From a virus (Duplodnaviria > Heunggongvirae > Uroviricota > Caudoviricetes): a stretch of 9,002 nt of DNA. Positions 1-9,002 of the stretch are shown here, in pieces (the first letter of the stretch is position 1; the number at the start of each line of letters is the position of its first letter). The stretch is from the IMG/VR virus record IMGVR_UViG_3300031577_000046. One strand, given 5' to 3'. The translations under genes and the position numbers were made by a program. Under the pieces are notes generated by a model. That model saw nothing but the letters and a program-made list of their open reading frames with translations, did not search any database and was not told the origin of the DNA.

Positions 1-63
1 CGTCTGTTGAGCACATCCTGTAATAAGCATTGCCAGAGCGGCAGAAAACAACATTTTTTTCAT
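1..63 (-). CDS. iss: Bor/Iss-family outer-membrane lipoprotein (serum-resistance, lysogenic-conversion protein); N-terminal 21 codons only, gene runs off the left edge
   Basis: Reverse complement of 1-63 translates to MKKMLFSAALAMLITGCAQQT: basic n-region, hydrophobic core and lipobox ITG|C, as in lambda Bor / E. coli Iss recalled from memory. AGGA Shine-Dalgarno 7 nt upstream (plus coords 71-74 as TCCT). An in-frame upstream ATG at 76-78 would add MQDNK but has no SD. Confidence 0.8.
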   Translation of the reverse strand, partial: MKKMLFSAALAMLITGCAQQT

Positions 64-79
64 CTTATTATCCTGCATT

Positions 80-108
80 GTTAAAAACGGCAGAATCCTA
101 TGTGACAA
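80..108 (-). promoter_or_regulatory. Candidate sigma70 promoter for bor/iss (-35 TTGTCA, 17-bp spacer, -10 TTTAAC on the minus strand)
   Basis: On the plus strand TGACAA sits at 103-108 and GTTAAA at 80-85, 17 bp apart, just upstream of the bor/iss SD. The hexamers are imperfect (5/6 and 4/6 to consensus); this is pattern matching only. Confidence 0.25.
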
Positions 109-555
109 CAATTAAACGATGGTTAAATGGATTGATGAAAATTAAAACAATATAGGTGGACGCTCAGACTATTGGAGGGAGTCGGAGACACTCAGAATTA
201 TGTGAATGAAATAAACCGCTCTATCTGTCCATTACCCTTTTAGCTGCGCTGTATCGTCGCCGTATTCCCGCATTAACCATAACCGTAGCCCGACGGGGAA
301 TTCCTTCTGCGTGAGTGTGCGGGAATAATCAAAAACGATGCACACCGGGTTTTTACCGCGTTTATGGTTCGCGGGTTTGTCCCTCATGCTCGCCAGTCCT
401 GTGCGGGGGTGGAAGAAACAGGACACTCACTCAGATTCTTGTGGGCACGATGCTATGCCTTTCTGGATTATCCCGATGCCATTCATGCAAGGCGCTGTAT
501 CAGACGTTCGTCAGAGCTGTCAGGCTGACGGGTCCTCCCGGTGGGGTGGCCTGCC

Positions 556-575
556 ACGGGGCGGTAGCGGCGCGG
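556..575. other. Candidate cosN (terminase nicking site); predicted 12-nt cohesive end GGGCGGTAGCGG at 559-570
   Basis: ACGGGGCGGTAGCGGCGCGG aligns with lambda cosN ACG|GGGCGGCGACCT|CGCGG recalled from memory: identical flanks (ACG, CGCGG) and 7/12 identity in the overhang. It lies about 180 bp upstream of the small-terminase start, the same distance as cosN to Nu1 in lambda. Confidence 0.5.
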
Positions 576-580
576 AAAAA

Positions 581-745
581 GGCTAGTTTTTGAAATTTCA
601 TCCGTCATCACCACCAATGCAACTAATTGATATTCCAGATATTTTATTTTTTCTGGTGTCGATTTTGATTGTTTTTTGTTCATCACTAACGCCGTTTATC
701 TAAAGTTGTTCGCAAGATGCATGTTTAAAACATTCTGGAGCGGGT
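581..745. other. Candidate cosB-like region (small-terminase / IHF binding) between cosN and the small terminase gene
   Basis: AT-rich non-coding stretch with short repeats (GATAT twice at ~630-645, GATTTTGATTG at ~661-671) and an inverted repeat CCAGA-N12-TCTGG (~635-656). Position matches lambda cosB; individual binding sites cannot be assigned from sequence. Confidence 0.35.
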
Positions 746-1240
746 ATGGATCGGGAGTTGAAAAATCTGACGCTGAATATCAGTCAACTGGCGGCACTGT
801 CAGGAGTACATCGCCAGACTGCTGCGGCAAGGCTGCAAAATCTACCCGTTGCAGGGGGGCATGAAAGCAACCTCAAGCTTTATCGGGTGGTTGATATTGT
901 GTCGGCATTTCTGGCATTACCACCGCCGGTTGCAGAAGGCGAAATGGACGCGCATGAGCGCAAAGCCTGGTATCAGTCTGAACGTGAGCGTCTTAAGTTC
1001 GAACAGGAAACGGCACAACTCATTCCGGCCAGTGATGTCAGACGGGAGTTTGCCATCTGGGCAAAAGCGGTCGTGCAGGTGCTGGAGACATTACCGGATA
1101 TTCTGGAACGCGACTGCGGTCTGCAGCCTGCCGCTGTGAGCCGTGTTCAGTCCATTATTGATGATCTGCGCGATCAGATAGCCCTGCGGGTGACCGAAGC
1201 AGGTGCGGATGATGAGGAGGAATTACAGCAGGAGGAGTAA
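746..1240 (+). CDS. nu1: Terminase small subunit, lambda Nu1 family (164 aa)
   Basis: ATG at 746 with GGAG at 737-740 (5-nt spacer). N-terminal HTH-like segment LNISQLAALSGVHRQTAAARLQ and overall resemblance to lambda gpNu1, acidic C-terminus. Sits immediately upstream of and overlapping (TAATG) the large terminase. Confidence 0.85.
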   Translation: MDRELKNLTLNISQLAALSGVHRQTAAARLQNLPVAGGHESNLKLYRVVDIVSAFLALPPPVAEGEMDAHERKAWYQSERERLKFEQETAQLIPASDVRREFAIWAKAVVQVLETLPDILERDCGLQPAAVSRVQSIIDDLRDQIALRVTEAGADDEEELQQEE

Positions 1241-3342
1241 TGCTGAATCAGGAAACCGCAAAGGCAGCACGAACCGATTCAGGTTATATCCTTCGCGCAC
1301 CGAGACGAATGCGGGTTGCTGATGCCGTCGCTCAGTATATGCGGGTACCCATGGGAGCCGGGAACTCAGTCCCGTGGGATCCGCTGGTGGCACCGTATGT
1401 TATTGAACCGATGAACTGTCTGGCCTCGCGTGAATACGACGCAGTGATATTTGTTGGCCCGGCACGAACCGGCAAGACTATCGGCCTGATTGACGGCTGG
1501 GTGATTTACAACGTGATTTGCGATCCTGCGGATATGCTGATCATTCAGATGACGGAGGAAAAAGCCCGCGAACACTCCAAAAAACGACTCGCCAGAACGT
1601 TTCGCGTCAGCCCGGAAGTGGTCAGTCGCCTGAGTCCGAACAAAAATGACAACAACGTTTATGACAGAACATTCCTTACTGGCAACTACCTGAAAATCGG
1701 CTGGCCGTCAGTCAATATCATGTCCTCATCAGATTATAAATGCGTGGCGCTGACGGATTATGATCGTTTCCCGGAAGATATTGATGGTGAGGGGGATGCC
1801 TTCTCTCTTGCCTCAAAACGTACCACCACATTTATGTCCAGTGGTATGACGCTGGTGGAGAGTTCCCCCGGCAGGGATGTGAAGGATGTGAAATGGCGAC
1901 GGACTTCACCACATGAGGCTCCACCAACCACGGGGATCCTGTCGCTCTATAATCGTGGCGATCGCCGTCGCTGGTACTGGCCCTGTCCACACTGTGGTGA
2001 GTATTTTCAGCCCTGCGGCGATGTGGTTGCTGGTTTCCGTGATATTGCCGATCCCGTGCTGGCAAGTGAGGCGGCTTATATTCAGTGTCCTTCCTGTTCC
2101 GGACGGATTATGCCTGAACAAAAACGTGAGCTGAACGGACGTGGGGTCTGGTTGCGGGATGGTGAATCCATCAATGCGGATGGCAGTCGTTATGGTGATC
2201 CCCGACGCTCACGTATTGCGTCATTCTGGATGGAGGGTCCGGCTGCTGCTTACCAGACACTCTCGCAACTCGTTTACAAACTGCTTACTGCAGAACAGGA
2301 ATACGAGACAACCGGAAGTGAAGAAACACTCAAGACGGTTATCAATACCGACTGGGGATTACCTTATCTTCCCCGCGCCAGCATGGAGCAACGAAAAAGT
2401 GAACTGCTTGAGCAGCGGGCAGAGCCAGTTCCTTCCCGCAGTGTGCCGGATGGCGTTAATTTCCTTGTGGCGACAGTGGATGTGCAGGCGGGACGTCATC
2501 GCCGTTTTGTGGTTCAGGTAACGGGCTATGGCAGCCGTGGCGAACGCTGGATTATTGATCGTTACAACATCACGCAGTCATTGCGCGGTGACAGCGACGG
2601 GGAGAGCCAGCGAATTGATCCGGCCAGCTATCCGGAAGACTGGGATGTCCTGCTGACGGATGTTTTTCATAAAAGCTGGCCGCTGGCCTCCGATCCTTCT
2701 CAACAAATGCGACTGATGGCAATGGCGGTGGACTCCGGTGGTGAAGACGGGGTCACTGATAATGCCTATAAATTCTGGCGTCGTTGCCGTCGTGATGGCC
2801 TTGGTAAACGTATTTACCTGTTTAAGGGCGACAGCATCCGGCGCGCAAAACTGATCACCCGTACATTCCCTGATAACACCGGACGAACGGGCCGACGGGC
2901 GCAGGCCGCAGGTGATGTGCCGCTCTGGCTTCTTCAGACGGATGCCCTGAAAGACCGGGTGAATAACGCGTTATGGCGTGACTCGCCAGGTCCCGGCTAT
3001 GTGCATTTCCCTGACTGGCTGGGGAGCTGGTTTTACGACGAACTGACGTATGAAGAGCGTAGCAGTGACGGAAAATGGAGTAAGCCGGGTCGCGGTGCCA
3101 ACGAAGCCTTTGACCTGATGGTGTATGCCGAGGCTCTGGTCATTCTGCATGGATACGAAAAGATCCGCTGGCCGGATGCACCGGAATGGGCGAGCCGGGA
3201 AACCTGGCTGGAGTGTGTCCCGGACAGTACCGAACCGTCACTCTCACCGGAACCGGTATCCACGCCTGTTAAAAAACAAAAACGGAAGAAAACAGTAACT
3301 GACGATGTTAACCCCTGGCTGACTTCCGGAGGATGGTTATGA
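1240..3342 (+). CDS. A: Terminase large subunit, lambda gpA family (700 aa)
   Basis: Walker-A-like VGPARTGKT at aa 72-80 (nt 1453-1479). Motifs CPHCGEYFQPCGD, WIIDRYNI and C-terminal GYVHFPDW...EAFDLMVYAEAL parallel lambda gpA (CPHCGEE, WLIDRQII, GAVHFP...EALDCFVYALAA). Start overlaps the Nu1-like stop. Confidence 0.95.
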   Translation: MLNQETAKAARTDSGYILRAPRRMRVADAVAQYMRVPMGAGNSVPWDPLVAPYVIEPMNCLASREYDAVIFVGPARTGKTIGLIDGWVIYNVICDPADMLIIQMTEEKAREHSKKRLARTFRVSPEVVSRLSPNKNDNNVYDRTFLTGNYLKIGWPSVNIMSSSDYKCVALTDYDRFPEDIDGEGDAFSLASKRTTTFMSSGMTLVESSPGRDVKDVKWRRTSPHEAPPTTGILSLYNRGDRRRWYWPCPHCGEYFQPCGDVVAGFRDIADPVLASEAAYIQCPSCSGRIMPEQKRELNGRGVWLRDGESINADGSRYGDPRRSRIASFWMEGPAAAYQTLSQLVYKLLTAEQEYETTGSEETLKTVINTDWGLPYLPRASMEQRKSELLEQRAEPVPSRSVPDGVNFLVATVDVQAGRHRRFVVQVTGYGSRGERWIIDRYNITQSLRGDSDGESQRIDPASYPEDWDVLLTDVFHKSWPLASDPSQQMRLMAMAVDSGGEDGVTDNAYKFWRRCRRDGLGKRIYLFKGDSIRRAKLITRTFPDNTGRTGRRAQAAGDVPLWLLQTDALKDRVNNALWRDSPGPGYVHFPDWLGSWFYDELTYEERSSDGKWSKPGRGANEAFDLMVYAEALVILHGYEKIRWPDAPEWASRETWLECVPDSTEPSLSPEPVSTPVKKQKRKKTVTDDVNPWLTSGGWL

Positions 3343-3551
3343 ACCAGAATGATATTGAAGCCATGATTCAGCGTTATACGGAAGCTGAAATGGCGGTGCT
3401 GGACGGAAAATCCGTCACCTTTAATGGTCAGCAGATGACCATGGAAAACTTATCTGAGATCCGACAGGGGCGGCAGGAGTGGGAGCGCCGCCTTGCGGCT
3501 CTGATTACACGACGACGGGGGCATCCCGGGTACCGGCTGGCGAGGTTCTGA
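3339..3551 (+). CDS. W: Head-tail joining protein, lambda gpW family (70 aa)
   Basis: Small protein between terminase and portal with a C-terminal RRRGHPG motif like lambda gpW (RRRGPAG). ATG 3339 overlaps the terminase TGA (ATGA, 3339-3342) and has GGAGG at 3328-3332 (6-nt spacer). The ATG at 3333 in the ORF track has no spacer to the SD. Confidence 0.85.
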   Translation: MNQNDIEAMIQRYTEAEMAVLDGKSVTFNGQQMTMENLSEIRQGRQEWERRLAALITRRRGHPGYRLARF

Positions 3552-5059
3552 TGGCAATTCTTGATGATGTGATTGGCGTTTTTTCTCCAGGATGGAAAGC
3601 GGCAAGGCTGCGTTCCCGTGCGGTGATCCAGGCTTATGAGGCCGTAAAAACGACGCGGACACACAAAGCCCGACGGGAGAACCGAACTGCCGACCAGTTA
3701 AGCCAGTACGGGGCCGTGTCGTTACGTGAGCAGGCCCGTTACCTTGATAACAACCACGATCTGGTTATTGGTGTATTTGACAAGCTGGAAGAACGGGTGG
3801 TGGGGAAAAACGGGATTATTGTCGAGCCACATCCGGTATTACGCAATGGGGCCATTGCCCGTGATCTGGCAGCGGAGATACGCACCCGATGGAGTGAATG
3901 GTCTGTCAGTCCGGAAGTCACCGGGCAGTTTACCCGTCCGATGCTGGAACGTCTGATGCTGCGTACCTGGCTGCGCGATGGTGAGGTGTTTGCCCAGATG
4001 GTTTCCGGGCGCATAAACAGCCTGACGCCTTCTGCCGGTGTTCATTTCTGGCTGGAGGCACTCGAGCCAGACTTTATTCCCATGATCAGTGATGAGAGCA
4101 ACAGGCTGAATCAGGGCGTGTTTGTTGATGACTGGGGGCGTCCCGAAAAATATCTGGTGTATAAAAGCCGTCCCGTATCCGGACGGCAGATGGAAACCAA
4201 AGAAGTGGATGCAGAGCGAATGCTGCATCTTAAATTTGTTCGCCGTCTGCACCAGATGCGCGGGACGTCTTTATTGTCCGGTGTACTGATCCGCCTCAGT
4301 GCCCTGAAAGAGTATGAAGATTCTGAGCTGATTGCAGCAAGGATCGCCGCTGCTCTGGGGATGTACATCCGGAAAGGCGACGGGCAGAGCTATGAACCGG
4401 ATGGTAATGGCAGCAAGGAGAATGAACGCGAGCTTACCATTCAGCCAGGCATTATTTACGACGATCTGAAACCCGGCGAAGAAATCGGAATGGTGAAGTC
4501 AGATCGCCCCAATCCTAACCTTGAAACTTTTCGTAATGGTCAGTTGCGTGCCGTGGCGGCGGGCAGTCGTCTGAGTTTTTCCAGTACGGCGCGCAACTAT
4601 AACGGCACTTACAGCGCCCAGCGTCAGGAGCTGGTTGAGTCTACTGATGGCTACCTGATCCTGCAGGACTGGTTTATTGGTGCCGTCACCCGCCCGATGT
4701 ACCGTGCCTGGCTGAAACAGGCTGTGGCATTCGGTGTTATCAGGCTACCCCGCGATCTTGACCGTTCTTCACTGTATACCGCGGTGTATTCCGGACCGGT
4801 GATGCCATGGATTGACCCTGTTAAGGAGGCTGAGGCCTGGAAAATTCAGATTCGTGGTGGAGCGGCGACAGAATCAGACTGGGTACGTGCAGGTGGTCGT
4901 AATCCGGATGATGTCAAACGTCGGCGCAAGGCCGAAATTGATGAAAACCGCAAGCTGGATCTGGTATTTGATACCGATCCGGCCAGTGATAAAGGAGGCA
5001 GCAGTGCCGCAACGAAACGACAGGATCCGCAGCACACCGACGACCAGTCCGAAGAATAA
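3551..5059 (+). CDS. B: Portal protein, lambda gpB family (502 aa)
   Basis: Large protein at the portal position between W and the protease/capsid gene. ATG 3551 overlaps the W stop (TGATG at 3549-3553); the upstream in-frame codons of the track ORF (from 3479) lie inside W. Family call is from size, synteny and a STAR(N/A)... motif, without a search. Confidence 0.85.
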   Translation: MAILDDVIGVFSPGWKAARLRSRAVIQAYEAVKTTRTHKARRENRTADQLSQYGAVSLREQARYLDNNHDLVIGVFDKLEERVVGKNGIIVEPHPVLRNGAIARDLAAEIRTRWSEWSVSPEVTGQFTRPMLERLMLRTWLRDGEVFAQMVSGRINSLTPSAGVHFWLEALEPDFIPMISDESNRLNQGVFVDDWGRPEKYLVYKSRPVSGRQMETKEVDAERMLHLKFVRRLHQMRGTSLLSGVLIRLSALKEYEDSELIAARIAAALGMYIRKGDGQSYEPDGNGSKENERELTIQPGIIYDDLKPGEEIGMVKSDRPNPNLETFRNGQLRAVAAGSRLSFSSTARNYNGTYSAQRQELVESTDGYLILQDWFIGAVTRPMYRAWLKQAVAFGVIRLPRDLDRSSLYTAVYSGPVMPWIDPVKEAEAWKIQIRGGAATESDWVRAGGRNPDDVKRRRKAEIDENRKLDLVFDTDPASDKGGSSAATKRQDPQHTDDQSEE

Positions 5060-5072
5060 TTCCTGGTTCAGG

Positions 5073-7031
5073 ATGCAGGCTGGTCACCAGAGTGACGCGG
5101 ATATTTATATTTATGACGAGATTGGTTTCTGGGGTGTTACGGCGAAGCAGTTTATCAGTGATCTGAATGCACTGGGCGATATCACCCACATTAATCTCCA
5201 TATCAATTCACCGGGTGGCGATGTCTTTGAAGGCATCGCCATTTTTAATGCGCTGAAAACACATAGTGCGTCCATTACCGTTTATGTCGACGGTGTGGCG
5301 GCATCAATGGCGTCGGTCATTGCGATGGTGGGAAACCCGGTCATTATGCCGGAAAACACCTTCATGATGATTCATAAACCATTTGGCTTTACGGGCGGTG
5401 ATGCGGAGGACATGCGCACCTATGCCGACCTGCTCGATAAAGTTGAGGCGGTTCTGTTACCCGCTTATGCACAGAAAACCGGGAAAACCACCGATGAAAT
5501 TGCTGCCATGCTGGCGGATGAGACCTGGATGTCCGGTGCCGAATGTCTGGCACATGGATTTGCTGATCAGGTGACGCCAGCCGTTAAGGCAATGGCATGT
5601 ATTCAGTCAAAACGTACAGAGGAATTTAAAAAGATGCCGGAATCCATTCGAAACATGATTACTCCGCCACGCAACAGTGCTCCACGCGTACAGGATGATG
5701 AACCTGCTGCCTCCCGGACACCAGTGCAGGCAGCAGCACCAGTGGTGGATGAAAACAGCATCCGTGTGCAGGTACTGGCAGAGCAAAAAGCGCGTGTAAA
5801 CGGTATTAATGATCTGTTTGCCATGTTTGGCGGGCGTTATCAGACGCTGCAGGCTCAGTGCCTTGCCGATCCTGAATGTTCGCTGGAGCAGGCCCGCGAA
5901 AAGCTGTTGAACGAGATGGGGCGCGAGTCCACGCCATCCAATAAAAATACCCAGGCTCATATTTATGCCGGGAACGGTAATTTTGTTGGGGACGGGATCC
6001 GCCAGGCGCTGATGTCGCGTGCCGGATTTGAAAAAACCGAACGTGATAATGTCTACAACGGAATGACCCTGCGTGAATATGCCCGTATGTCACTGACTGA
6101 ACGGGGTATTGTGGTTTCCAGTTATAACCCGATGCAGATGGTCGGTGCGGCGTTCACACACAGTACGTCTGACTTCGGTAATATTCTGCTGGATGTTGCG
6201 AACAAAGCCATTCTGCAGGGTTGGGAATATGCCCCTGAAACCTACGAACAGTGGACGCGGAAAGGTCAGTTGTCTGATTTTAAAATTGCCCATCGTGTGG
6301 GTATGGGGGGCTTCAGTGCTCTGCGTCAGGTGCGTGAAGGGGCGGAATATAAATACGTCACCACCGGAGATAAACAGGCCACTATTGCACTGGCGACCTA
6401 TGGCGAACTGTTCAGTATCACCCGTCAGGCCATTATCAACGATGATCTGAATATGCTGACCGATGTCCCGATGAAACTGGGTCGTGCGGCGAAATCCACT
6501 ATTGCCGATCTGGTTTATGCCATTCTGACGTCTAACCCGAAGATCTCCACAGATAATGTAAGCCTGTTCGATAAAGCGAAACATGCAAACGTACTGGAGA
6601 GCGCAGCAATGGACGTGGCATCGCTGGATAAAGCCCGCCAGTTGATGCGTGTTCAGAAAGAGGGTGAGCGTCATCTGAATATTCGTCCTGCGTTCGTACT
6701 GGTACCGACGGCGATGGAGTCTGTTGCTAACCAGGTCATTCGCTCCTCAAGTGTCAAGGGGGCTGACATTAACGCCGGTATTATTAACCCGGTGAAAGAT
6801 TTTGCGACCGTTATTGCAGAGCCTCGTCTTGATGATAACAGCCAGACCACCTTTTATCTGGCTGCGTCCAAAGGCTCCGATACGATTGAAGTGGCTTATC
6901 TCAACGGTGTGGATACGCCATATATTGATCAGATGGAGGGCTTCAGTGTGGATGGCGTGACAACTAAAGTGCGTATTGACGCCGGTGTTGCGCCAGTTGA
7001 TCACCGCGGTCTGGTGAAATGTACGGCGTAA
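5073..7031 (+). CDS. Tripartite head gene: ClpP-like (S14) prohead protease, scaffold-like linker and HK97-fold major capsid protein in one 652-aa ORF (Gifsy-2-type)
   Basis: ClpP catalytic motifs are present: GVAASMAS (Ser78, nt 5304-5306) and MMIHKPFG (His101, nt 5373-5375), matching E. coli ClpP AASMG / MIHQPLGG. A Pro/Ala-rich linker follows (~5655-5750), then a predicted helical segment, then ~350 aa of capsid-like sequence to the stop at 7029-7031. Start is ambiguous: ATG 5073 (weak SD, 14 nt after portal stop) or in-frame GTG 5004 with AAGGAGG at 4992-4998. Confidence 0.85.
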   Translation: MQAGHQSDADIYIYDEIGFWGVTAKQFISDLNALGDITHINLHINSPGGDVFEGIAIFNALKTHSASITVYVDGVAASMASVIAMVGNPVIMPENTFMMIHKPFGFTGGDAEDMRTYADLLDKVEAVLLPAYAQKTGKTTDEIAAMLADETWMSGAECLAHGFADQVTPAVKAMACIQSKRTEEFKKMPESIRNMITPPRNSAPRVQDDEPAASRTPVQAAAPVVDENSIRVQVLAEQKARVNGINDLFAMFGGRYQTLQAQCLADPECSLEQAREKLLNEMGRESTPSNKNTQAHIYAGNGNFVGDGIRQALMSRAGFEKTERDNVYNGMTLREYARMSLTERGIVVSSYNPMQMVGAAFTHSTSDFGNILLDVANKAILQGWEYAPETYEQWTRKGQLSDFKIAHRVGMGGFSALRQVREGAEYKYVTTGDKQATIALATYGELFSITRQAIINDDLNMLTDVPMKLGRAAKSTIADLVYAILTSNPKISTDNVSLFDKAKHANVLESAAMDVASLDKARQLMRVQKEGERHLNIRPAFVLVPTAMESVANQVIRSSSVKGADINAGIINPVKDFATVIAEPRLDDNSQTTFYLAASKGSDTIEVAYLNGVDTPYIDQMEGFSVDGVTTKVRIDAGVAPVDHRGLVKCTA

Positions 7032-7054
7032 ACGTTGCAGACAACAACTCTGAT

Positions 7055-7074
7055 GGCCCGTAAGGGCTTTTTTT
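7055..7074 (+). terminator. Candidate intrinsic terminator / mRNA-stabilising hairpin after the capsid gene
   Basis: Stem G7056CCC / GGGC7067 closed by GNRA tetraloop GTAA (7060-7063), followed by a run of seven T (7068-7074), 25 nt after the capsid stop. The stem is only 4-5 bp, so it is probably weak or leaky. Confidence 0.45.
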
Positions 7075-7085
7075 GTACCTGAAAT

Positions 7086-7104
7086 CAGCCCCTGAACGGG
7101 GCTG
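7086..7104 (+). promoter_or_regulatory. Stem-loop immediately upstream of the SD of the next gene (possible translational or stability element)
   Basis: Perfect 7-bp stem CAGCCCC (7086-7092) / GGGGCTG (7098-7104) with 5-nt loop TGAAC and no T-run. It ends 3 nt before the GGAG SD (7108-7111) of the 7118 CDS. Confidence 0.3.
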
Positions 7105-7117
7105 TGCGGAGACAGTT

Positions 7118-7441
7118 ATGGCAAAGAATTTTGTAGAAGAAGGAAAAACGGTGGCGATTGTTGCCAGTGCAGCCATCAGCAGCGGAGATCTGGTGCAGGT
7201 GGGTGATGTTTTTGCGGTGGCGCTGACCGATATTCCACAGGGTGAAACAGGCGACGGCATGACCGAAGGTGTGTTTATGCTGCCTAAGCTGAAAACGGAT
7301 GACATGAAAACGGGTAATAAGGTCTATCTGAAGTCCGGAAAAGTTCAGCTGACTAACAGCGGCTCTGATCCGCTGGTCGGGGTTGTCTGGGCAGATGCCG
7401 GAACCAGTGCAGAAGAAGTGCCGGTAAAACTCAATGTCTGA
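7118..7441 (+). CDS. Small head protein, probable decoration/cement protein (DUF2190-like by recollection); not similar to lambda gpD (107 aa)
   Basis: ATG 7118 with GGAG at 7108-7111 (6-nt spacer). Gly/Val/Ala-rich sequence of the DUF2190 phage-protein type as I recall it. Sits directly after the capsid gene and before FII, where lambda has FI; function is inferred from position and composition. Confidence 0.55.
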   Translation: MAKNFVEEGKTVAIVASAAISSGDLVQVGDVFAVALTDIPQGETGDGMTEGVFMLPKLKTDDMKTGNKVYLKSGKVQLTNSGSDPLVGVVWADAGTSAEEVPVKLNV

Positions 7442-7709
7442 TCCCTTTTCCCGGCTGGCAGCGCGTATGGATGCGATCACGGTCAGAAAGATGGGAAAGA
7501 CAGCCTCGATTAATGATGTCGATATGACTGTGATCCCGGGAGAAACACTGGCAGAGCTGAATGCTCTGTCCGGACCGTCGGTCTCTCTGGTGGTGTTTTC
7601 TTCGGGATACCGCCCACGGCGCGGGGATCGCGTTGTTTATGACGGACAACAATGGACGGTCACACGGCATGAACGCTTTAACGGTAAACCAATGATCTTT
7701 ATTGAGTAA
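7434..7709 (+). CDS. FII: Head-tail joining protein, lambda gpFII family (91 aa)
   Basis: N-terminus MSDPFSRLAARMDAITVRKMGKTASI parallels lambda FII MADFDNLFDAAIARADETIRGYMGTSATI, and RRGDRVVYDGQQWTV parallels RRGDTLTIGEENFWV. Start overlaps the preceding stop by 8 nt (ATGTCTGA). Confidence 0.75.
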   Translation: MSDPFSRLAARMDAITVRKMGKTASINDVDMTVIPGETLAELNALSGPSVSLVVFSSGYRPRRGDRVVYDGQQWTVTRHERFNGKPMIFIE

Positions 7710-7720
7710 AGAGGTGTGGG

Positions 7721-8299
7721 ATGAAGGGGCTTGAGAACGCCATCCGCAATCTGAACAGCCTTGATACCCGTATGGTACCGCAGGCCAGCGCATGGACGAT
7801 AAACCGTGTGGCACAGAAAGCGGTCTCGGTTGCCACGCATCAGGTCGCGCAGAATACCGTGGCGGGAGATAACCAGGTGAAGGGGATCCCTTTTCGGATT
7901 GTAAAAGAACGTGTCCGGGTACTGAAAGCCACCCCGACAGGAAAAATGTATGCTCGAATTCGCATTAACCGGGGCAACCTGCCCGCCATTAAGCTGGGGA
8001 CGGCCCGGGTCAGACTGGCCCGGCGTGGTGGAAAACTGCGGTACCGTGGCAGTGTGCTGAAGGTGGGTAAATATCTTTTCCGGGATGCGTTTATTCAACA
8101 ACTGGCGAATGGTCGCTGGCATGTGATGCGGCGTATTGACGGCAAAAATCGTTACCCCATTGATGTGGTGAACATCCCGATGGCCGGACCGCTGACACAG
8201 GCATTTGAAGATGCCCGCGACCGCATCATTGCTGCGGAGATGCCGAAACAGCTGGGGTATGCACTGAAACAACAACTGAGGTTATGGCTGACCCGATGA
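7721..8299 (+). CDS. Z: Tail completion protein, lambda gpZ family (192 aa)
   Basis: Same length as lambda gpZ, with near-identical blocks: FIQQLANGRWHVMRRIDGKNRYPIDVVNIPMAGPLTQAF versus lambda FIQQLKNGRWHVMQRVAGKNRYPIDVVKIPMAVPLTTAF (from memory). GAGG at 7711-7714, 6-nt spacer. Confidence 0.9.
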   Translation: MKGLENAIRNLNSLDTRMVPQASAWTINRVAQKAVSVATHQVAQNTVAGDNQVKGIPFRIVKERVRVLKATPTGKMYARIRINRGNLPAIKLGTARVRLARRGGKLRYRGSVLKVGKYLFRDAFIQQLANGRWHVMRRIDGKNRYPIDVVNIPMAGPLTQAFEDARDRIIAAEMPKQLGYALKQQLRLWLTR

Positions 8300-8697
8300 A
8301 CCGACATACACAAATCCGCCAGGTCGTACTGGCACGCCTTCGGGAACAGTGTGGAGACGGCGCCACGTTTTTTGACGGGCTTCCGGCATTTGTTGATGCG
8401 CAGGAACTGCCCGCCGTGGCGGTGTGGCTGAGTGATGCACAGTACACCGGAAAAATGACGGATGAAGATGACTGGCAGGCTGTTCTGCATATTGCCGTCT
8501 TCATCCGGGCACAGGCACCGGATTCAGAGCTGGATATGTGGATGGAGAGCACCATTGTCCCGGCCCTGAATGATATACCGGCACTTTCCGGACTCATCGA
8601 CACCCTGAGCCCACTCGGTTTTAACTATCAACGTGATAATGAGATGGCCACCTGGGCGATGGCGGAAATCACGTACCAGATCACGTACACGAATTAA
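8296..8697 (+). CDS. U: Tail terminator protein, lambda gpU family (133 aa)
   Basis: [12 protein letters not shown]...GATFFDG...[14 protein letters not shown]...[11 protein letters not shown]...DIPALSGLI closely parallels lambda gpU (MKHTELRAAVL...GATFFDG...PAVAVYLTGAEYTG...PDSELDAWMES). ATG 8296 overlaps the Z stop (ATGA, 8296-8299). The in-frame ATG at 8284 is possible but the homolog alignment favours 8296. Confidence 0.9.
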
Positions 8698-8707
8698 GGA
8701 GGTGGCA

Positions 8708-9002
8708 ATGACCACACCAAATCCACGGGCAAAAACGAAAGGTGCGGGGACGACGTTCTGGATGTATACCGGCAACGGCGACGCATTTGCGAACCCTTTA
8801 TCGGACACTGACTGGCTGCGTCTTGCGATGGTGAAGGATCTGCAACCTGGCGAAATGACCGCTGATGCAGAAGATGACACTTATCTCGATGATGAAGATG
8901 CAGACTGGAAAACGACAACTCAGGGGCAGAAATCCGTCGGTGATACTTCGGCGACGCTGGCCTGGCATCCGGTAAGAAAAAAACACGCGACCCCCGTAAT
9001 GA
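8708..9002 (+). CDS. V: Major tail protein, lambda gpV family; first 98 codons only, gene continues past the right edge
   Basis: AAGGAGG at 8696-8702, 5-nt spacer, ATG 8708. Translation [45 protein letters not shown]...YLDDEDADW matches lambda gpV ([41 protein letters not shown]...YLDDEDADW). No stop before the window end. Confidence 0.9.

Follow-up and report, generated by a model that had tools for sequence, protein, structure and literature searches.

What gene stands at the left edge of this phage DNA, and should it count as virulence cargo? The window (the whole stretch of 9,002 nucleotides analysed here) opens inside a minus-strand reading frame, which the initial annotation identified as iss/bor, a serum-resistance lipoprotein gene. 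Window 1-63, read on the minus strand, very probably holds the beginning of iss, here a lysogenic-conversion 'moron' of an E. coli prophage of the lambda/Gifsy cos type; the gene occupies the interval from the lysis cassette to cos, converges on Rz and runs antisense to the late transcript. As a finding this is already known, being textbook and database knowledge about a very common, ordinary gene.

Start of the gene and its signal peptide

The features at the left edge are:

1-63, minus strand: 5' end of iss (Bor-family lipoprotein), codons 1-21, called from the translation, the identity to Iss and to plasmid iss, the PGAP start and the lipobox check
64-78, minus strand: translation-initiation region, with a Shine-Dalgarno AGGA at 74-71 and an alternative in-frame ATG at 78-76
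79-244, minus strand: region upstream of iss, the presumed location of the promoter, delimited by alignments

The minus-strand translation of window 1-108 is LSHRILPFLTMQDNKMKKMLFSAALAMLITGCAQQT, and the ORF continues off the left edge, which cuts it after 21 codons, as stated at the outset. The ATG at 63-61 yields exactly the 21 residues that had been quoted, MKKMLFSAALAMLITGCAQQT (window 63..1, minus strand). They comprise the signal peptide MKKMLFSAALAMLITG, the lipobox, Cys17 and four mature residues, AQQT. The lipoprotein signal that the initial annotation had claimed is borne out by a PROSITE-type lipoprotein rule, which the peptide passes (K2, K3, an uncharged h-region, the lipobox ITG followed by Cys17, and Ala at +2); MKKMLFSAALAMLITG followed by Cys at position 17 is also what is expected of the Bor/Iss family.

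The AGGA at 74-71 and the downstream iss ATG (63-61) are separated by 7 nt. A second in-frame ATG at window 78-76 gives MQDNKMKKM..., the older 102-aa Iss annotation, and database Iss entries come in both lengths, 97 aa and 102 aa. This MQDNK ATG was rejected as the main start: it overlaps the Shine-Dalgarno sequence serving the iss ATG (63-61), and lambda has ATC at this codon. The MKKM... start appears to be the better supported one, because PGAP places the start of iss in homologous E. coli loci at the equivalent of window 63.

Identification as iss

Over its 21 residues the N-terminus agrees completely with Iss (21/21 aa), both with the ColV-type plasmid allele and with the PGAP chromosomal allele, and at 17/21 positions with lambda Bor, the differences being F6L, S7A, A8T and M12L. 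The plasmid reference allele used throughout is a ColV-type iss scored 100% by AMRFinder. Window 1-108 matches the ColV-plasmid iss locus at 106/108 nt, untranslated leader included, and the first 63 coding nucleotides match plasmid iss at 62/63 versus 53/63 for lambda bor; by this comparison, the part of the gene inside the window is Iss-type rather than Bor-type.

The 108-nt segment is widespread. It occurs at an identity of at least 99% in 2,380 complete E. coli records, many complete genomes of the species carry annotated iss that agrees with it at every position (100%), and the best ten matches listed are all annotated as iss (10/10). Some match was found in 3,415 of 5,426 complete E. coli genomes (~63%), with up to 4 places per genome and with 660 of the matching places on plasmids.

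Profile searches with the 26-aa window fragment alone gave no Pfam match, because the PF06291 (Lambda_Bor) profile does not start until residue 19, which leaves just 3 of its residues inside the window. NCBIfam is without an Iss/Bor model and returned no meaningful match for the fragment. A sequence search of the PDB found no relative, and a single-sequence AlphaFold model (mean pLDDT 52.6) was too poor to use.

An unrelated ORF or lipoprotein could in principle happen to start with a lipobox-type signal peptide. Taken by itself the lipobox rule is weak evidence, since it is also passed by 2 of the 177 arbitrary ATG-ORFs of the window (~1%), and the fragment by itself drew no match from Pfam or NCBIfam. 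Such a coincidence would have to account for near-identity to reference iss that runs on through the untranslated leader, for complete identity to annotated iss in many genomes, and for the conserved synteny described below. We regard its probability as negligible. Judged on sequence identity, which we take as the decisive ground for calling the gene iss, chance resemblance appears to be excluded and this reading effectively refuted.

The complete gene in near-identical contigs

Proxy contigs were picked by their encoding exactly the 700-aa large terminase of the window. Contig L002 (ENA ERZ27260890 k141_939, 93 kb) aligns to window 1-8972 with 3 mismatches (at 8173, 8557 and 8967) and is identical to the window over 1-8172. 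Its iss ORF (L002 4531-4824) is intact and encodes 97 aa, in line with the ~97-102 aa that the initial annotation had anticipated from a leftward extension. Residues 19-95 of the protein match Pfam Lambda_Bor (PF06291) at E 2.2e-30, with 105 bits where the cutoff is 25, and its whole length matches phrog_260 'Bor-like outer membrane protein' (6e-58). It is identical to plasmid Iss at 94/97 positions, to chromosomal Iss at 93/97 and to lambda Bor at 87/97. Assignment to the Bor/Iss family, proposed earlier from the N-terminus, thereby extends to the full frame in this contig, and neither an early stop nor a frameshift interrupts it.

The identical 97-aa protein is present on 12 contigs from at least 5 samples, every time between Rz and the DUF1441 small terminase. 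In NCBI it is MBS1204602.1, 'MAG: putative Bor protein', and belongs to a 90% cluster of 791 members, the named ones being labelled Iss or Bor. The predicted family membership of the mature domain rests on these near-identical proxies rather than on the source molecule.

A source gene truncated or disrupted just past the window edge would make the window's portion a dead 5' fragment of a remnant or pseudogene. The window does stop at codon 21, databases contain many partial Iss entries of 70-95 aa, and related prophages can be degraded, as at the EJN001 locus with its truncated large terminase. Against this, L002 bears the full ORF while being identical over 1-8172, all 12 of the 12 contigs with this protein keep it intact in the same context, and the partial database entries fit contig-end truncations. 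An independent JGI metagenome contig, L003 (Ga0316604_10004979, 8,624 bp), stops within iss, 1 nt past window position 1. Since iss/bor has several copies in E. coli populations and L003 ends at nearly the same base, the cut at the window edge is probably an assembly break inside a multi-copy gene, technical and not biological. We consider a remnant very unlikely; going by the near-identical contigs, iss is almost certainly intact in the source molecule.

Position between the lysis cassette and the late operon

Two genes to the right of iss define the start of the late operon:

746-1240, plus strand: terminase small subunit, DUF1441 family, the first gene of the head/packaging operon (PF07278; phrog_141 'terminase small subunit', 7e-74)
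1240-3342, plus strand: terminase large subunit, lambda GpA type, with ATPase and nuclease, 700 aa (PF05876, PF20454; phrog_15)

Large terminases of the lambda GpA type are the enzyme class that nicks lambda-like cosN. The further plus-strand genes in the window encode a portal, a ClpP-protease/major-capsid fusion, a decoration protein, a Gifsy-2-family protein, Z-like and U-like proteins and the start of a tail tube protein. Left of the window, L002 has plus-strand genes for a holin (PF04971), a lysozyme (PF00959) and Rz (PF03245), and the next gene is iss, on the minus strand. The series holin, lysozyme, Rz, opposite-strand iss, DUF1441 and GpA terminase is found in L002 and in L009-L013.

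The initial annotation had placed the gene opposite to the late operon and in the slot that bor occupies in lambda, between the lysis genes and cos. Both statements hold: the terminase and head genes are on the plus strand with iss on the minus strand, and the proxies show the order Rz, iss, DUF1441. Lambda likewise has Rz, then bor (minus strand), then cos, the same order as in the window together with L002. Thus the gene sits in the lambdoid slot between lysis cassette and cos and is directed against the late operon. PGAP gives the same layout for E. coli chromosomes that match the window at 97.4% identity over 9 kb. From these chromosomal prophages with the same layout, we predict the host to be E. 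coli or a very close relative.

The convergent stops of iss and Rz are separated by a 31-nt gap (L002 4500-4530) that contains a strong hairpin, with an 11-bp stem (GAGTTGCCCAT/ATGGGCAGCTC) and the loop CGAT. Lambda keeps this hairpin with one base change and with all 11 predicted stem pairs retained. Neither strand carries a T-tract, so the hairpin does not qualify as a canonical intrinsic terminator; it may stabilise 3' ends or act as a barrier where the two transcripts converge.

The window has two further peculiarities. One 675-aa ORF (window 5004-7031), which begins within the last part of the portal gene, combines a ClpP-like prohead protease and the major capsid protein in one polypeptide, and PGAP names it 'ClpP-like prohead protease/major capsid protein fusion protein'. 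This fusion is a known trait of the Gifsy/Sp-type head module and is unrelated to iss. At the right end, window 8973-9002 (GTAAGAAAAAAACACGCGACCCCCGTAATGA) departs from L002 and likewise from all E. coli prophages of ~97% identity, each of these alignments ending at 8972. It continues the reading frame of the tail tube gene (start at 8708). The exact 53-mer at this end was absent from IMG/VR, and the last 38 nt had no megablast match in complete E. coli genomes. These 30 nucleotides are either a mosaic junction inside the tail tube gene or an assembly-end artefact.

The predicted cos site

Alignment of window 430-760 to the circularised lambda junction gave the following candidates:

530-536, plus strand: cosQ-like heptamer GGGTCCT, identical to lambda 48473-48479, with a single occurrence in the window
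559-570, plus strand: predicted 12-nt cohesive end (cosN core) GGGCGGTAGCGG, from the lambda-junction alignment, in which lambda has GGGCGGCGACCT
571-745, plus strand: presumed cosB/small-terminase binding region and late packaging leader, assigned by position only

Lambda 48473-48479 is cosQ. The 7-bp cosQ is highly conserved among lambda-like phages (PMC4669245). Window 557-572 reads CG-GGGCGGTAGCGG-CG, against CG-GGGCGGCGACCT-CG in lambda, with the flanking CG dinucleotides kept. The predicted cohesive end equals that of lambda at bp 1-6 and 10 and differs only at bp 7, 8, 9, 11 and 12; natural variation in lambda-like cosN is found in bp 7-12, with Gifsy-1 differing at 8, 9 and 11 (Feiss et al., PMC4669245). 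The spacing from cosQ to the predicted nick is 29 nt in the window and 30 in lambda, and that from the nick to the ATG of the small terminase is 187 and 190 nt, respectively. All the hallmarks of a lambda-like cos are present, namely cosQ, bp 1-6, the flanking CG, variation in bp 7-12 and a GpA-type terminase, and window ~530-575 is predicted to be such a site.

The ends of related phage records were compared with this prediction. The linear record mEp460_4F5 starts 5 nt upstream of the predicted nick. In the mEp460 and Ayreon records the first base corresponds to window 721, a little before the terminase gene, and this choice of start looks like a convention of deposition. When the literature was searched for the 12-mer GGGCGGTAGCGG, only unrelated primer or linker matches came up. 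A dyad-symmetry score around the predicted cosN was dropped as evidence; even the true lambda cosN does not stand out by it.

Among close relatives, the centre and right part of the cohesive end vary, and cosQ and the flanks are fixed. Where the window has GGGCGGTAGCGG at 559-570, E. coli EJN001 (L001 3560-3571) has GGGCGGGAGCGT, and mEp460_4F5 (L006 6-16) has an end that is 3 nt shorter, GGGCGGGAGCG-CGG. If this shorter end is real, the overhang length or the position of the bottom-strand nick differs in that phage.

The claim that the gene lies immediately left of cos is fair, with one qualification. The predicted cos does lie to the right of iss, by homology, and the gap between them is ~0.5 kb and contains a small hypothetical ORF. 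From the iss ATG to cos there are 495 nt in the window, versus 1,750 nt from bor to cos in lambda; the distance is shorter because the lambdap78/lambdap79 segment is absent.

Mosaic structure of the locus and its upstream region

The limits of collinearity differ among relatives. Most E. coli iss loci have window 1-186 in common as a core. The match to lambda-like phages with Bor extends over window 1-419; in mEp460-type phages without bor, collinearity is confined to the part right of ~245. One of the more typical relatives in E. coli, the probiotic-product strain A0 34/86 (L014), matches 1-186 and 357-800; there, ~820 bp just upstream of cos (L014 1688-2507), including an HNH-endonuclease pseudogene, replace window 187-356. 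The short iss-to-cos arrangement, scored as contiguous window 1-760, is found in only 21 of the 5,426 complete E. coli genomes. Given these differing limits, iss appears to behave as a separately exchanged module.

Similar discontinuity is present inside the coding sequence. Positions 1-100 of the proxy CDS match plasmid iss at 98/100 and lambda bor at 85/100, and positions 160-294 match lambda bor at 133/135 and plasmid iss at 126/135. The iss CDS thus reads as a mosaic, iss-like at the 5' end and bor-like at the 3' end. N26H and Q70K are absent from the other nine aligned variants. The precise allele, with H26, K70 and L83, was found on no more than 6 contigs, and its database name, 'putative Bor protein', comes from a MAG.

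No sigma-70 consensus site was found in a scan of window 1-800. Manual inspection gave weak candidates only (TATATT at 154-149, CATAAT at 202-197, and TTGTCA-17-TTTAAC at 108-80), which are without a usable -35 and are not conserved in lambda. Because no consensus promoter was found upstream, lysogenic expression of iss is only assumed, by analogy. A search of window 1-800 against Rfam at a permissive E-value gave 0 matches.

The block at 245-345 is conserved upstream of iss/bor in lambda, ColV plasmids and chromosomal prophages, and is present in the bor-less mEp460-type phages too. A hypothetical 51-aa ORF without a family match is called across it on the minus strand (232-387). Within it is a perfect 10-bp inverted repeat with arms 45 nt apart (263-272/318-327; TATTCCCGCA / TGCGGGAATA). 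Lambda has a compensatory double change in this repeat (TATTCCCGGA / TCCGGGAATA), and in the EJN001 allele 2/10 pairs are broken. The RNA fold of 263-327 is unremarkable (plus-strand z = -1.8, minus-strand z = +0.4). The block may serve as a recombination linker or a binding site, or may have no role at all.

The allele, for its part, could be a functional iss/bor recombinant, combining an iss-type promoter-proximal region and signal peptide with a bor-type 3' half and with N26H and Q70K. If this is true, the recombinant allele may have properties unlike those of either parent. Two readings seem unlikely to us: that the allele is a functional recombinant, and that the block at ~245-345 has a function of its own, as a structured RNA, as a site for protein binding or as a linker mobilising the iss module among lambdoid phages.

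Predicted function and the virulence label

The export and lipidation steps that we infer follow established lipoprotein biology, and the function is taken from the Bor/Iss literature. The precursor would be exported by Sec, lipidated at Cys17 by Lgt, cleaved by signal peptidase II (LspA) and acylated by Lnt. With Ala instead of Asp at +2, the lipoprotein would then be sorted by Lol to the outer membrane. The expected product is an outer-membrane lipoprotein of ~81 residues in its mature form. Cys17, Cys58 and Cys95 are invariant in the alignment. Expressed from the prophage, the lipoprotein may modestly raise serum survival, and the routes proposed for this are interference with the action of the membrane-attack complex or support of O-antigen (group 4) capsule production. 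The size of any such effect would depend on the allele.

Lambda Bor, in work attributed to Barondess and Beckwith in 1990 and 1995, and plasmid Iss, in work attributed to Binns in 1979, are each said to have been first identified through increased serum survival. Iss and Bor are described as outer-membrane lipoproteins linked to increased serum survival that may hinder the membrane-attack complex (review PMC12846712). According to the same review, which cites Binns 1982 and Biran 2021, loss of iss in an O78 strain goes with less group 4 (O-antigen) capsule and with serum sensitivity (PMC12846712). In APEC O78-9, the chromosomal prophage iss allele is transcribed, yet it did not substitute for the deleted plasmid iss in serum, even when overexpressed, and bor likewise could not replace plasmid iss (PMC4313913). 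A secondary source calls the chromosomal type 2 iss 'apparently less virulent' (PMC8148099).

The same gene could have other biology, as a near-neutral passenger or as an envelope protein that serves capsule or O-antigen assembly, envelope integrity or a phage-centred function in the lysogen, with no meaningful complement resistance. We rate this as a serious possibility, somewhat short of even. The failure of chromosomal iss and bor to complement the loss of plasmid iss in APEC O78-9 favours it, as do the lowered group 4 capsule in the O78 strain, as cited in the review, and the weaker virulence ascribed to the type 2 chromosomal allele. It is also favoured by the presence of the 108-nt segment in 3,415/5,426 complete E. 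coli genomes, by the occurrence of iss in the same slot of a probiotic-product strain, and by the departure of the allele from reference plasmid Iss at N26H, Q70K and F83L. On the other side, the proteins of lambda and of the plasmids reportedly came to light through serum survival itself, the protein here is 94/97 identical to the plasmid allele, and an alternative function of iss/bor is not demonstrated.

The identification as prophage iss holds under either account of what the protein does. The label of virulence-associated cargo given in the initial annotation stands as the label that the literature applies to Bor/Iss, and becomes doubtful for prophage alleles. Although iss is widely used as an ExPEC/APEC virulence marker, a match to iss in a metagenome such as window 1-108 should not count as evidence of a pathogen, because the segment is present in ~63% of genomes and the gene in a probiotic-product strain, and because prophage alleles failed in complementation. 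The gene is useful in another way: iss at the left edge helps to call the element a prophage, to place cos and to orient the late operon.

Comparison with known alleles and cos sites

The predicted cos resembles those of lambda, 21, phi80, N15 and Gifsy-1 in that the cosQ heptamer is identical, the flanking CG is kept and the large terminase is of the GpA type. Compared with lambda cos in particular, spacings to cosQ and to the small-terminase gene are within 1-3 nt. Unlike the ends of lambda, those of the window are predicted from sequence, and the cosB region of the window is unrelated to that of lambda because the small terminase is DUF1441 and not Nu1.

Lambda Bor (lambdap77, NP_597780; 97 aa) shares with the proxy protein the PF06291 domain, the length, the lipobox ITGC and the invariant Cys17, Cys58 and Cys95. 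The genes share the slot after Rz and before cos, the antisense orientation to the late operon and the hairpin at the convergent Rz and bor stops, and over the 3' 135 nt of the proxy CDS they agree at 133/135 positions. They differ in the signal peptide (4/21 residues), in the full protein (87/97 identical), in an upstream region that is largely different, and in the flanking small terminase, which here is of the DUF1441 type and in lambda is Nu1.

Plasmid Iss (ColV/ColBM-type IncF, iss 'type 1') has the same N-terminal 21 residues and agrees at 106/108 nt, including the Shine-Dalgarno sequence and the MQDNK ATG. In contrast, its CDS agrees at 281/294 nt, with 9/13 of the differences in the 3' 135 nt, where the window allele follows lambda bor, and its protein at 94/97 aa (differences N26H, Q70K and F83L). 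Further upstream the two diverge, a typical plasmid match over the gene and upstream region being ~80-90%. Plasmid iss is carried on a conjugative plasmid, whereas the present gene has a prophage context, with lysis and terminase genes on both sides. By these measures the allele is not the plasmid 'type 1'.

Johnson and colleagues reportedly divided iss into types 1, 2 and 3 in 2008, with the chromosomal prophage alleles as types 2 and 3. The closest counterpart is the chromosomal prophage iss, which PGAP names 'increased serum survival lipoprotein Iss' (WP_021576768, WP_000738423). It is the same gene in the same position, in the order Rz/RzoD, iss, DUF1441 and GpA, next to a Gifsy/lambda-type head module, in prophages to which the window is 97.4% identical. 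We therefore assign the window gene, by its sequence, to the chromosomal/prophage iss alleles of the Bor family and not to the ColV-plasmid allele.
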